Shown: piece by piece, positions 33,141 to 50,312 of the stretch
Layout: each line of letters begins with the position of its first letter
Position numbering within the stretch: position 1 is the stretch's first letter
Origin: an uncultured Candidatus Peribacteria bacterium
Lineage (GTDB): Bacteria; Patescibacteriota; Gracilibacteria; JAHISY01
DNA length: 64,000 nt
Direction: 5' to 3'
Assembly (NCBI GenBank): GCA_964452725.1
Contig: CAYVMX010000003.1
Span: 6,670 to 70,669, forward strand
The notes under the pieces: generated by a model
The model's database searches: none
Told to the model about the DNA's origin: nothing
The model's input: only the letters and a program-made list of their open reading frames with translations
Program-made: the position numbers and the translations under genes

Positions 33141-34913
33141 ATGGGACTCTCTGCTGCTACCAGTCCGTCACCTCAGTCTCAGTATTTCGACGATCTGTCG
33201 ATTGATACTGATGGCAATTCAGATAATGGTCCTGAGACCAATCTACAAAAGCAACTGAATAATTTAAAAAACAATCCACAAGCGCAAGTTTTAGTGGAAA
33301 AACTCTTGCAATACGAACAACAAATCGCAAATAACACCAGCGGTGAACTAAAAACACTAGCAGCAGAGCTGGCACTTTCATTTGATGCCAATGCCAGACC
33401 TAATGAACGAGCGAGTATAGATATCTTGCGTGACTTGGTAGATCGAGTCCCAGAGAGCCTGACGACCGAGTATTTCACCGAAAATTCAGAGTTACTCGTC
33501 GGCGATTTCAGTATTTTGTTTGATCGCTATCTAAATCCGACTGTCGCAGATGGCTATCAGCAGCTCTTCGCGAGCTTTCGAGCAGCACAGCTAAGCCAAA
33601 TCACGACCGAACTAAAAAACAAAATCCAAACTCAGGTCCAAGCTGGTGATAAGTTGGACGCAGGATTTACCCAGCAGCTAACTGCTGACGTCGACTACCT
33701 ACGCCAGACCAAAGCAGTAGAATTAAAATTACTGGCCAGTAAGGACGGCTCAGCCGAGACTATCAGCCTCGCAGAGCTGAGGGAGGCAGGGATAGAAAAC
33801 CACTCTTCATTTAGTCAAACGTATTTCGAGCTAATGATGCCAGCTGAGTACCCGACACTAGCTGAGCGCAAAGCAAAATTAACAACCTACCTCGAAAATA
33901 TCGCCGAGCGACCCGCTACGGCACACACTAGCGCGAGCCGCGAGCTACTCTATGTCGCTATGCAGCTAGTCGGTGATGGACGTCTGACCGAGCGTGAGAT
34001 GGCACCAGCAGGTGCGACACCAGAGGAGAACCAAATCAGTGCCAAGCTGCGTGCGATTGACTCGCACAAAGTATTCAACGAGACATACGAAGCGGTACTA
34101 AAGGGGTTCAGCTCAGACAGTCCAGAGTACAAAAACCTCCAAGCAGCCTTCGAACAGTCAAGTGACAAAAAGACCAGTAGTGTGAGCGACTTACTCGCGC
34201 TCAAGAGACCAAACAAGCATGAAAGAAAAGAGATCCTAAAGTCGGCAAAAACCGAGGCAGAGCGTACAGAGTTGGACGCACTTATCAGCGATGGTATCCC
34301 GACCAAACTCCTCGCTGCACTCGACCTAGCTCACCGGATCGAGCTAGATCAGCAGGCTGGCTCACTCGATACATCGGGCACATCACTGGGCAAGCACGCC
34401 AATATCAGCAATACGCTCCTCTACCTAGGAGTGAGCAATATCGTTGCGGCTAGTTTGATCATTACGATTATCCAAAATCTCGGCGATCCACTCAGTCTAT
34501 TTACCAATTCGGTCTTCCTCGCCGATGTCGGTATCCTCGGTGCGACAGCACATCACTGGGGCATGCTAGAGCTGGGACCCAAGGCTGGTAAAAAAGAGTT
34601 CAAAACTAAAATAGTCAAATTAGAACAAAATAAAGACCAGACAGTCGCACCACAGGTCAAACAATGGCTCACTGCAATCGACCCAGTTCAATTCAAGCAA
34701 AACTCAGAGCTAGAGCGGTATATCGACGAGCAGGCTCGCGATGGTGTGTATACAGTCGAGGCTGCCGAGCTAAAGTCTTTCTTGCCCAAAGGTGCTGACA
34801 TACCTGTGCTCAACTCTGAGCCCGCCAAACGTCAGCTTTTTCGATTACTCAATCATGCTACACAGTATCACCTAGTGCCGACACGCCAGCTCCTCAAGCT
34901 TTCCAAAAAATAA
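33141..34913 (+). CDS. Hypothetical 590-aa protein, helical, with a C-terminal TM pair
   Basis: Long ORF with normal composition, 3 nt after the previous gene. No recognisable catalytic motif. Confidence 0.65.
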   Translation: MGLSAATSPSPQSQYFDDLSIDTDGNSDNGPETNLQKQLNNLKNNPQAQVLVEKLLQYEQQIANNTSGELKTLAAELALSFDANARPNERASIDILRDLVDRVPESLTTEYFTENSELLVGDFSILFDRYLNPTVADGYQQLFASFRAAQLSQITTELKNKIQTQVQAGDKLDAGFTQQLTADVDYLRQTKAVELKLLASKDGSAETISLAELREAGIENHSSFSQTYFELMMPAEYPTLAERKAKLTTYLENIAERPATAHTSASRELLYVAMQLVGDGRLTEREMAPAGATPEENQISAKLRAIDSHKVFNETYEAVLKGFSSDSPEYKNLQAAFEQSSDKKTSSVSDLLALKRPNKHERKEILKSAKTEAERTELDALISDGIPTKLLAALDLAHRIELDQQAGSLDTSGTSLGKHANISNTLLYLGVSNIVAASLIITIIQNLGDPLSLFTNSVFLADVGILGATAHHWGMLELGPKAGKKEFKTKIVKLEQNKDQTVAPQVKQWLTAIDPVQFKQNSELERYIDEQARDGVYTVEAAELKSFLPKGADIPVLNSEPAKRQLFRLLNHATQYHLVPTRQLLKLSKK

Positions 34914-48405: not shown

Positions 48406-49950
48406 ATGCGCCGCCTACTACTTACTCTGCTGTTTACACTACTGATCGCGCCAGCTGCGTTGGCTGCGCCGACTTTTTCCTCGGCGGCTGATCAGACTTT
48501 TCGTCAGTACAGCGTACCGACTCAAGTCCTCGAATTCACCGCTACTGCCGATGCAATAGCACCGGAGCTAACCGCAGCAGGGGATTTACGGATCACTATT
48601 CCAGAGAGTTTCCCCGCGATCTGGGACGCGAGTATCACGACTGCCTCTGTGAGTGGTACAGCCGTCGACGCTGGACGTTTCGCTAGTGCTACTCTGCCTG
48701 TCAGCTATACCGACCGTGACAAGACCGTGGTGCTAGATATCACCACCGACTTCGCCGCAGGGGAGAGTGTGAGTATCGCCGGACTCTATCTCAAAGGGTT
48801 CTACAGTGTTTACAGTTCCACCCACTTCACGCTGGACTACGGTGCTACAGCGACTGCTACCGACGCGCGTTTCTTTGCCATCACCCGCGCCAAAGACAAT
48901 GACAAAGACGACACACCACCCAGCGCACCGACCGGACTGACTGCGATCCAGACCAGTGCTGGAGTTCAGCTGCGCTGGACCGATCCGACCGACCGCGATC
49001 TCACCCTCATCGAAATCCTCCGAGGTGTGAGTCCAGCACCCGTCAGTGGTAGTGCTTACGATGCTGTCCAACCGCAGACCGAGACTTATACCGATACCTC
49101 TGTCCAGCTCGGCGAGACAGCGACCTATACATTGCGTGCGCTCGACGGACGCAATACTAGCGTGCTCACGCCAGAAGTGTCGCTCACACTCGTCGAGCAG
49201 CCGATCGCCGTCTGTACTGCCGAGTACGCGCCTGTCTGCGGTGCTGATGGTACGACCTACTCCAACGCTTGTAATGCTGGGCTCGCCGGTATCACCGACT
49301 ATACGAGTGGGGAGTGCGCTACGAGCGATCCTAAAGCCCTAGAAGCCACACCAGCCACAGATTTGGACCAGCTAGCGACCGAGGCGGGTATCACCACTAC
49401 GGAGCTTACAAGCGCCTCAGACGGCTATTCAGATCTGGACACTACCCACTGGTCAGTCGGCTTCCTCGCACGACTCACGCGCGATGGTATATTGAGCGGC
49501 TATCCCGACGGTACAGTCCAGCCCGACACTACGCTCAACCGTGCCGAGCTAGCGAAGATCACGACCAACGCTTTCAACCTCACAGTATTGCCACCGACTT
49601 TCGCCGATGTAGAGATGAATGCGTGGTACGGTCCTTTCATCGGAGCAGTGGAGGAGGCTGGGGCAGCGTGGACGACAGGTACGGATTATCTACCTGCTGC
49701 TGCTGTGAGTCGCGGTGAGGCGATCTGGACACTTTTGCAAGCTGCGGGTATCACGCTCACTGCCCCGACTGTCGCGCCTTTCCCCGATGTCAGCCGGAGC
49801 TATGTGTACGCCAGTGCGATCAGCTGGGCAGTTACAAATAATATTGTAAATGGGTATGTCGATGGTAATTTCGGACCCGCCGATACACTCACCCGTGCAC
49901 AAGTAGCGAAGATGGTCGTGCTCTTGAAAGAGTATCTCGCAACGAAGTAA
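48406..49950 (+). CDS. Secreted FN3 - Kazal-type inhibitor domain - SLH-anchored protein
   Basis: Signal peptide MRRLLLTLLFTLLIAPAALA. FN3-like module (PPSAPTGLTAIQTSAGVQLRWTDP). Kazal signature CTAEYAPVCGADGTTYSNACNAGLAGITDYTSGEC. Three C-terminal SLH repeats. Confidence 0.85.
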   Translation: MRRLLLTLLFTLLIAPAALAAPTFSSAADQTFRQYSVPTQVLEFTATADAIAPELTAAGDLRITIPESFPAIWDASITTASVSGTAVDAGRFASATLPVSYTDRDKTVVLDITTDFAAGESVSIAGLYLKGFYSVYSSTHFTLDYGATATATDARFFAITRAKDNDKDDTPPSAPTGLTAIQTSAGVQLRWTDPTDRDLTLIEILRGVSPAPVSGSAYDAVQPQTETYTDTSVQLGETATYTLRALDGRNTSVLTPEVSLTLVEQPIAVCTAEYAPVCGADGTTYSNACNAGLAGITDYTSGECATSDPKALEATPATDLDQLATEAGITTTELTSASDGYSDLDTTHWSVGFLARLTRDGILSGYPDGTVQPDTTLNRAELAKITTNAFNLTVLPPTFADVEMNAWYGPFIGAVEEAGAAWTTGTDYLPAAAVSRGEAIWTLLQAAGITLTAPTVAPFPDVSRSYVYASAISWAVTNNIVNGYVDGNFGPADTLTRAQVAKMVVLLKEYLATK

Positions 49951-49963
49951 GACAAACCAAAAG

Positions 49964-49997
49964 ACCCATTTGCCAGATTGGTAAGTGGGTTTTTTTG
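49964..49997 (+). terminator. Rho-independent terminator
   Basis: ACCCATTTGCCA-gat-TGGTAAGTGGGT followed by TTTTTT. Confidence 0.75.
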
Positions 49998-50001
49998 TGA
50001 C

Positions 50002-50178
50002 AGAACCTCCGTGGTGGATCGGGTGGGACTTGAAGCTAGCTGCGTGATTGTACTAATTCAAAGTCGGTACACGGTGCGCACCGATACGGCAGAGCTAATC
50101 CCAGCTTTGTGCGGACGTGAGTCCTCGTCCACCACAATCACCACGAAGAACCTTGACACTACGGGTCAAGAACCTCCG
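50002..50178 (-). repeat. tRNA-3'-linked element, copy D: 134-nt insert plus a 33-nt repeat of the tRNA-Lys 3' end and 10 nt of trailer
   Basis: 50002-50034 is identical to 50169-50201. In tRNA orientation: hairpin cttgac-ccgtagt-gtcaag, GGTTCTTCGTGG, GGATTAGCTCTGCCGTATCGG, the palindrome CGGTGCGCACCG (50072-50083), CCGTGTACCGACTT and the terminus GTACAATCACGCAGCTAGC. Confidence 0.85.
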
Positions 50179-50254
50179 TGGTGGATCGGGTGGGACTTGA
50201 ACCCACGACTATCGGCTTAAAAGGCCGCTACTCTACCAACTGAGTTACCGATCC
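50179..50254 (-). tRNA. tRNA-Lys (anticodon UUU), CCA encoded
   Basis: Reverse complement: ggatcggtaactcagttggtagagtagcggcctTTTaagccgatagtcgtgggttcaagtcccacccgatccacca. Confidence 0.95.
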
Positions 50255-50312
50255 AAAATTTAAATTTAGCCAAGGAATTTTAGCAGAAATTTAAGTACGG
50301 TAAAATAAACTC

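Follow-up and report, generated by a model that had tools for sequence, protein, structure and literature searches.

A probable tRNA-linked repeat unit of a lineage-specific subfamily behind tRNA-Lys(UUU) in a Candidatus Peribacteria genome

Introduction

The tRNA-linked repeats (TLRs) of E. coli carry 18–19 bp identical to the 3' end of their upstream tRNA or 5S gene, and E. coli K-12 has 22 copies at ten loci, without known function (PMC8144298). The class goes back to work by Egan & Landy in 1978 and by Rudd in 1999, which PMC8144298 summarises. Three TLRs that sit between the dual terminators of rrn operons are transcribed by read-through, and in vitro they bind Hfq and CsrA; for these units, RrA, RrB and RrF, which are transcribed by reading beyond the first terminator (T1), the repeat has been proposed as a processing signal (PMC8144298). 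In the literature we searched, TLRs are described for E. coli and close relatives only and are functionally unexplained. Here, we describe a repeat located immediately behind the tRNA-Lys(UUU) gene of an uncultured Candidatus Peribacteria bacterium, in a window of 64,000 nt (the whole stretch of DNA that was analysed; assembly GCA_964452725.1, contig CAYVMX010000003.1, positions 6,670 to 70,669). Positions 50002–50178 of the window are probably one TLR unit of the same kind as the repeats at E. coli tyrT and proK, belonging to a lineage-specific subfamily, A, and maintained by the mechanism proposed below.

Results

A repeat unit directly behind tRNA-Lys(UUU)

An exact 33-nt direct repeat occupies 50002–50034 and 50169–50201, with a spacing of 167 nt; in the tRNA sense, it consists of TTCAAGTCCCACCCGATCCACCA, which is T54 to A76 of the tRNA, followed by CGGAGGTTCT. 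An earlier note, made from the letters of the window, had described a repeat that starts in the T-loop and runs past CCA, and ARAGORN, Rfam and a repeat search confirmed it, with the sequence as claimed. The 134 nt between the two repeat copies are one unit of a tRNA-linked family, and the unit begins at the base right after the CCA of tRNA-Lys(UUU). The parts of the locus are as follows:

50179..50254, minus: tRNA-Lys(UUU), CCA encoded (ARAGORN; Rfam RF00005, 71.8 bits)
50179..50201, minus: X1, the proximal copy of tRNA 54–76 (T-loop, T-stem 3' strand, acceptor 3' strand, ACCA)
50169..50178, minus: first 10 trailer nt, CGGAGGTTCT, within the 33-nt repeat and forming the 5' strand of the P1 helix
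50152..50170, minus: T1, a terminator-like post-CCA hairpin, CTTGAC-CCGTAGT-GTCAAG, then GGTTCTTCG (terminator-like scan)
50127..50145, minus: X', CGTGGTGATTGTGGTGGAC, an imperfect inverted copy of X1/X2, with partner GTCCCACCCGATCCACCACG (folds and cognate-specificity test)
50113..50124, minus: P3 hairpin, GGAC-TCAC-GTCC (folds)
50094..50111, minus: conserved block CACAAAGCTGGGATTAGC (alignment of copies)
50061..50089, minus: P4 hairpin, CCGTATCGGTGCGCACCGTGTACCGACTT (alignment and covariation)
50035..50053, minus: 3' terminal block GTACAATCACGCAGCTAGC (alignment of copies)
50012..50034, minus: X2, the exact distal copy of tRNA 54–76, closing a stem with X' in the free unit RNA (repeat search and fold)
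50002..50011, minus: CGGAGGTTCT, repeated after X2
49957..49996, plus: intrinsic terminator of the convergent SLH/Kazal protein gene (fold)

Read in the tRNA sense, the order is thus tRNA positions 1–53, X1, trailer a, T1, a', X', P3, CACAAAGCTnGAATTAG, P4, GTACAATCA..CAGCTAGC and X2. T1 is flanked by RGTTCT and GGTTYT, and a', which follows T1, pairs with trailer a. At the Lys locus, T1 is probably leaky. The P4 hairpin is CCGTATCGGTGCGCACCG, with compensatory versions in other copies (CGGGGCTGCCCCG, CCGGCGCGCGCCG and CGAGGCGGCTCG). All five conserved blocks mentioned in the earlier note are present in the Lys copy, the 3' half of which is 80% identical to the copy at tRNA-Arg(CCU). The first of these blocks is the tRNA's own terminator-like hairpin, a point that the note had missed, along with the inverted copy X' and the known E. 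coli TLR/RtT layout. The 10 nt that follow X2 are best read as the start, or stump, of a further truncated unit, because longer partial second units are found at other loci.

Kinship with E. coli TLRs and RtT RNA

The Lys unit lies directly downstream of its tRNA gene in the same orientation, repeats the end of that gene (23 nt plus 10 trailer nt) and belongs to a multi-copy family, as TLRs do. Also like the E. coli TLRs, the units described here follow the first terminator-like hairpin of a stable-RNA gene, carry an exact end copy, occupy many loci, form tandem arrays with a partial last unit, and have no associated enzyme or known function. They differ from their E. coli counterparts in the length of the end copy (23 nt, from T54, compared to 18–19 nt), in a longer X' of about 19 nt that extends as far as CCA and directly adjoins the terminator hairpin, and in an unrelated body sequence; moreover, they are found behind a much larger fraction of tRNA genes, and in one family only of the candidate phyla radiation (CPR), a group of ultra-small bacteria.

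On the E. coli side, tyrT-tyrV with its distal 178-bp repeats and the proK locus follow the same order: tRNA, spacer or terminator, anti-tRNA segment (GGGGAAGGAT or GAGGAT), GAGAA, hairpins and a 19-nt copy of the end of that tRNA, with 1.6 to more than 3 tandem units. At proK (NC_000913 3708350–3708700), there are 1.6 RtT-type units (Rfam, 101 bits), in which both GAGGAT and the 19-nt copy are matched to tRNA-Pro, showing that the arms are 're-tailored' in E. coli as well. The Rfam family RF00391 (RtT) recognises the E. coli units, and its consensus is closed by a stem between the anti-tRNA segment and the 5' part of the end copy; the fold of the Lys unit (50012–50178) is closed in the same way, by X':X2. 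RtT RNA (rttR, RF00391; tyrT-tyrV, proK) has the same RNA layout, a closing stem with internal hairpins, but the 3' half of the Lys(UUU) copy differs. The RrA, RrB and RrF loci (PMC8144298) likewise present a stable-RNA gene, T1, a unit with a copy of the gene end, and a second terminator, T2, but they lie behind 5S rRNA rather than tRNA and bind Hfq and CsrA through GGA motifs.

The sequence-level connection runs through a second group of copies, subfamily B. In the window's genome, the best match to RF00391 is the copy at tRNA-Val(GAC), with 16.9 bits, and the copy at tRNA-Ser(GGA), within the window, matches over its full length with 14.6 bits; subfamily B as a whole scores 14.6–19.4 bits compared to a gathering score of 45. 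Blocks common to subfamily B and RtT are GGTGAGAA, GGTTCGAC, CGAG..AGCGAG and GAGCGAnGC. In the opposite direction, when a model built from five CPR subfamily-B copies alone (R2) was run against the 4.64-Mb chromosome of E. coli K-12, its two best matches were the unit at tyrT-tyrV (E 0.024) and the TLR at proK (E 0.036), and nhmmer with the E. coli units ranked the Val copy first. The sequence link between subfamily B and RtT is weak but reciprocal. The Lys copy has its 5' half in common with subfamily B and a 3' half of its own, in which GGUUCGA, CGAG..AGCGAG and the GC-rich central hairpin are absent; all three are present in the copies at Ser GGA, Val GAC and Cys GCA.

Distribution, subfamilies and junctions

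All five tRNAs of the window have their own 3' end repeated at a distance of 167–190 nt, and in the complete 921-kb genome (26 contigs; hereafter G000) an exact copy of at least 14 nt of the tRNA's own end lies within 450 nt of 9 of the 39 tRNAs, so these repeats are not due to chance. tRNA-Phe is absent among the 39 tRNAs called in this genome. Behind some tRNAs, or ahead of one unit, the sequence is masked as N (C9:~33514-33620, C11 and C17, beside tRNA-Asp and tRNA-Ile), and the classification leaves these loci aside. The tRNAs involved include Lys, Arg, Ser, Met, His, Val, Cys, Leu, Ala and others, and identity to the tRNA's own end was observed at most of 30 loci and in a wider set of 52 copies.

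A covariance model built from seven copies (R1) found matches in all 12 genomes of the window's family, which span four genera, at E<=0.01 (1–23 matches each, 19 in G000); at E<=1e-5, matches were present in 11 of the 12 family genomes compared to 0 of 139 other genomes of the class. These matches support the proposition of the earlier note that copies behind unrelated tRNAs share a common origin, and the subfamily-A blocks, unmatched in those 139 genomes, in E. coli K-12 and in phage and plasmid collections, are not generic tRNA trailer sequence. The R1 matches in G000 lie beside tRNAs, the seemingly orphan ones adjoining partial tRNAs at contig ends or masked sequence. No copy of the unit was detected by blastn in phage and plasmid collections; a pattern scan of IMG/VR gave just two chance matches, confined to the 18-nt hairpin, and the 19-nt P4 motif yielded chance matches only across genome contigs, in high-GC genomes.

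In subfamily A, to which the Lys copy belongs, most copies have the start of X2 exactly at T54, after (C/G)AGC(T/C)AGC; the typical junction state, AGCTAGC followed by T54, is exact in most copies, and in the remaining ones small indels within the T-loop part delay the start by 1–6 nt. In subfamily B, X2 begins at position 59 and is 18 nt long; this subfamily includes Ser GGA (in the window), Val GAC and Cys GCA (G000), Arg TCG (in two family genomes, G010/G011) and Lys UUU (G001). The right boundary of identity falls 0–26 nt past CCA, extending to as many as 1.8 or 3 full units in arrays, and about half of the copies have no right extension, stopping exactly at CCA.

tRNA-Lys(UUU) itself is without a unit in nine family genomes, all of other genera, and carries a subfamily-B unit in G001, which indicates that occupancy turns over. 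No empty allele was seen at the orthologous Lys site, because a metagenome scan for the locus returned one near-identical contig and otherwise relatives of <=47% identity. Of the family members, one has the flanking AP-endonuclease (nfo-type) gene, and there the gene shows no synteny with a tRNA-Lys.

Three tRNAs that lie beyond the window have a third conserved structured segment, ~200 nt long (ATCATGAAAGAGGGCGCGC ... GGTTCGTATTTTACTCCGGCGGTACACGCCCGCC ... CTTTCATGAT), which replaces the T1 hairpin loop of TLR units: C14:27900-28205 (tRNA-Tyr), C16:16813-17140 (tRNA-Trp) and C22:2670-2900 (behind the tRNA-His unit). At tRNA-Tyr, a short subfamily-B unit comes next, then an 18-nt X2, with a spacing of 309.

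Evidence of constraint at the RNA level

Across the 52 copies, the helix between the tRNA-end copy and X' contains 81 G.U pairs compared to 10 A.C single mismatches, and the sense strand folds more stably than the antisense strand in 42 of them (-46.1 vs -41.0 kcal/mol). T1 covaries among copies (in the alignment fold, 11 of 20 pairs carry compensatory changes), and compensatory changes occur in P4 as well. To assess the fit of X' to its own tRNA, we used hairpin-extension energies in place of a free RNAduplex test, which gave too much noise, since C-rich tRNA ends pair with any G-rich stretch. The cognate tRNA end contributed -13.0 kcal/mol, compared to -10.9 kcal/mol for non-cognate ends, and was better than the median in 40 of the 52 copies, with the Lys copy ranking first of the 52. 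The G.U bias, the sense-strand stability and the cognate fit of X' point to an RNA made in the tRNA sense.

For the free unit RNA of the Lys locus, 167 nt from 50178 to 50012, the fold comprises the T1 hairpin and a multi-hairpin domain closed by X':X2 (-62.6 kcal/mol, z -2.85; z -5.5 for the whole transcript). In sister genera, T1 has the textbook form of an A-tract, a GC hairpin and a U-tract.

Identity of X2 and changes in unit number

Within positions 61–76, X2 differs from X1 at only 2.4% of sites over the 52 copies, whereas unit bodies within one genome are 60–72% identical. Between genera, bodies behind the same tRNA are no more similar (0.61) than those behind different tRNAs (0.62). 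X2 is identical between the Leu(GAG) units of G007 and G011, the bodies of which are 72% identical, and where X1 of the Ala(GGC) units of G010 and G001 differs at four positions, X2 follows. Given that X2 equals X1 and is not adapted to the imperfect X', the constraint is on identity, reflecting either concerted evolution via direct-repeat recombination or selection for a true mimic of the tRNA strand.

Unit number changes rapidly. The Met array contains 1.8 units, another array, in G002 (G002:C6), has three in tandem, and the His locus carries a decayed second unit with an insertion of ~200 nt in T1; partial distal units and internally deleted 'trailer-only' remnants are common. At the Lys locus, a sister contig (L147; VAPM010091730.1, 2360-2644, corresponding to 49990-50254 of the window) reads terminator, tRNA-end copy, a unit with 2 single-nucleotide polymorphisms, another end copy and a second unit, which is either a real two-unit allele or an assembly loop, and the single unit of the window could be a collapsed array; another contig (L148) matches the window at this locus. 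Contigs of the organism are present in assemblies VAPL/VAPM and in run SRR6439371.

Two closely related genomes of the family, G003 and G005, offer a further comparison. At tRNA-Leu UAA (L070 / L076), the trailer found after X2 in G003 lies immediately behind the tRNA in G005, where a 19-nt palindrome is inserted in X2, and the tRNA-Lys(CUU) unit of G005 (L097 / L098) has lost its 3' half. The differences between the two genomes fit gain and loss of units by recombination between the end copies. In G000, a subfamily-A unit at a contig end (C1:128900-129148, tRNA-Thr CGU) has an X' that fits its tRNA and an X2 (TTCAATCTCGGCAGGTGGATCCA) that is another Thr-like end; this unit may be a chimera from recombination between loci.

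Mobility enzymes and rejected element classes

Reverse transcriptase (RT; RVT_1, PF00078) was not detected in 11 of the 12 element-bearing genomes, with control genomes giving matches; the sole RT domain in the 12 family genomes lies in a 484-aa open frame (G003:C3:59995-60714, L104). With PF00589, each genome yielded a single conserved tyrosine recombinase, Xer-like and about 310 aa long, which never lies beside a unit, and no further integrases. These results indicate that the element is a host-maintained structured trailer module, not a self-mobile one. They also tell against a mobile origin, which the earlier note had entertained for the copies, as do the limited identity of copies within a genome and the fact that each carries the end of its own tRNA in direct and in inverted orientation. 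Neither a cut-and-paste nor an att-site element can bring such own-tRNA copies along.

Specific classes fared no better. For an att-core integrative element, the copies share no core, each repeating the end of its own tRNA, and for a miniature inverted-repeat transposable element (MITE) or an insertion sequence (IS) derivative, the duplication ranges in length from 18 to over 87 nt and its right boundary shifts; ends that vary with every tRNA, together with the variable duplication length, exclude the att-core element and the MITE. TnpB/IscB-type guide RNAs, IS110 bridge RNAs, group I/II introns and integron attC sites were rejected as well, there being no associated protein or matching anatomy. 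tRNA-targeting integrative elements and their derivatives without an integrase (CIMEs) resemble the present case in that tRNA 3'-end direct repeats starting in the T-loop flank the inserted DNA; here, in contrast, the unit is about 134 nt long, without cargo or integrase, and each unit matches a different tRNA and holds an inverted copy of the tRNA end.

Neighbouring genes

The distal repeat copy was rightly described as close to the terminator of the SLH gene, but the distance is 5 nt rather than the 4 nt given: the U-tract spans 49990-49996 and the repeat starts at 50002. This terminator folds with -23 kcal/mol (z -5.95) on the plus strand and more weakly in the tRNA sense, with -10.9 kcal/mol (z -1.2) on the minus strand. 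The gene that it serves encodes a convergent 514-aa surface protein (48406-49950, plus strand) with Kazal-type inhibitor domains (PF00050/PF07648) and SLH repeats. An 80-aa open reading frame antisense across the unit (49978-50220, plus strand) was judged spurious, being without conservation across copies.

Discussion

We propose the following mechanism for the Lys unit. Transcription of tRNA-Lys would partly read through the weak T1 hairpin, and the read-through RNA would bear X', complementary to the 3' strand of its own tRNA, a body of small hairpins and X2. Normal 3' maturation of the tRNA would then cut the unit off, leaving a stable RNA of ~167 nt with a 5' hairpin and a stem-closed multi-hairpin domain; as the X':X2 helix ends in a tRNA-like ...ACCA, the unit's 3' end would be set and protected by the enzymes that act on the tRNA. 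The analogy of RtT and what has been proposed for RrB (PMC8144298) suggest such processing. Unequal recombination between X1 and X2 would expand and contract the array and hold X2 to the selected tRNA end, while distal units would decay, the 10 nt after X2 being a stump of this kind, to judge from arrays and partial units elsewhere. No element-encoded enzyme would be involved.

Several observations weigh against this account. Read-through, processing and stability of the unit RNA are steps that we infer, and in the genome of the Lys copy the tail of T1 is U-poor (GGUUCUUCG) and T2 is weak in the tRNA sense. Recombination between 23-nt repeats also deletes units, so their persistence needs selection or an unnamed process of gain. 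The model leaves unexplained how X' and X2 first came to match each tRNA and why the identity tract often stops exactly at CCA; plausible host routes for the matching of the arms are unequal recombination on conserved T-loop sequence and quasi-palindrome template switching across T1. With respect to kinship, the Lys copy has no match to RtT (RF00391, E<=10, 49950-50300) and R1 has none in E. coli K-12, so that the RtT link rests on architecture and on the below-threshold scores of subfamily B. The lack of an RtT match, together with a 3' half of its own, makes the Lys copy a new lineage-specific TLR variant, not a member of RF00391.

Among the other explanations, it is unlikely that the units are neutral by-products, harmless debris of slippage, quasi-palindrome template switching and unequal crossing-over near tRNA terminators. 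Such an origin needs no enzyme, the arrays, truncated distal units and trailer-only remnants are what it would leave, and the tRNA end, T1 and X' together form a long quasi-palindrome, a type of sequence that is corrected by template switching; but conserved blocks and covarying hairpins have been kept over four genera (and, for subfamily B, all the way to E. coli), the position of the junction does not vary (T54 or 59), and the asymmetry between G.U and A.C along with sense-strand stability argues for selection on RNA. We consider it decidedly unlikely that the unit is a miniature integrative element, that is, an attP-like circle of ~167 nt (tRNA-end copy, T1, X' and body) integrated, also in tandem, by a tyrosine integrase supplied in trans, with the crossover in the T-loop, X1 borne by the element and X2 being the displaced original end. 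Prophages and islands that target tRNA genes do cross over in the T-loop, direct repeats of the tRNA 3' end starting there flank the unit, arrays that end in one extra end copy are the outcome expected of repeated circle integration, and the trailer after X2 in many copies resembles the post-CCA trailer of element-free tRNAs in the same genomes. Against this stand the single Xer-like recombinase per genome, with no integrase beside any copy, the lack of copies in the phage, plasmid and IMG/VR collections, the divergence of copies within a genome and the RNA-level constraint indicated by the G.U bias; furthermore, end copies and X' fitted to their own tRNA could not be acquired on a change of target, and a non-cognate X1 would inactivate the tRNA.

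The folds raise a different possibility, which we regard as very improbable: a pseudo-intron, in which, within read-through transcripts, X' captures X1 in a long hairpin extending T1 and tRNA positions 1–53 pair with X2, so that the unit would be a large insertion in the T-loop at 53/54 (58/59 in subfamily B and E. coli) acting as a switch or in quality control for tRNA derived from such transcripts. By nearest-neighbour folding, the acceptor stem forms with X2 in 47 of 52 copies from CPR genomes and in all three E. coli units, the alternative, when constrained, has the lower energy in 52 of 52 (by 7.2 kcal/mol on average), and X2 is identical to X1 rather than adapted to X', most sharply at 61–76, which must pair with the 5' strands of the tRNA. 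The energy model, however, takes no account of tRNA tertiary structure or of co-transcriptional folding, which both favour the normal tRNA; an X2-using fold follows almost automatically from the symmetric design; and X2 is decayed, missing or foreign beside some intact tRNAs (for example G000 C9 and C1, and G001 Arg(TCG)). We know of no activity in bacteria that removes a T-loop insertion. The predicted X2-using fold hints at a strand-swap switch, as a lead only. A broader version, to which we likewise assign a small probability, would unite TLR-type units from E. coli RtT to the CPR subfamilies in one ancient class of tRNA-specific RNA switches, in which X' captures the 3' strand and X2 replaces it, the unit is a removable or regulatory T-loop insertion, and the arms are re-templated by host recombination anchored in the T-loop; it is suggested by the strict identity of X2 and X1, the sharp boundary at T54/59 and the consistent preference for the X2 fold. 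Least credible is a retro-element inserted by target- or tRNA-primed reverse transcription, with X' as the relic of a primer-binding site and X2 as a primer copy stopped at a modified T-loop base. The 18- and 23-nt lengths counted from CCA recall retroviral 18-nt primer-binding sites, and one boundary is sharp while the other is variable, but the absence of RT from 11 of the 12 genomes largely refutes this reading; in addition, several copies, including Lys, extend past CCA into unprocessed trailer, and X' is imperfect while X2 is perfect.

Under our preferred interpretation of the Lys repeat as a TLR unit, a deep-branching, genome-reduced lineage retains the TLR design at a large proportion of its tRNA genes. 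The CPR units bear clear signs of selection on a sense-strand RNA, with the tRNA-end copy co-evolving with the tRNA, and the retention of dozens of units in a 0.92-Mb genome argues against junk. For practical purposes, the units account for assembly breaks at tRNA genes and should not be taken for prophage att sites. The lineage provides many independent small examples in which the RNA role of these repeats and the matching of their arms to the tRNA can be studied.

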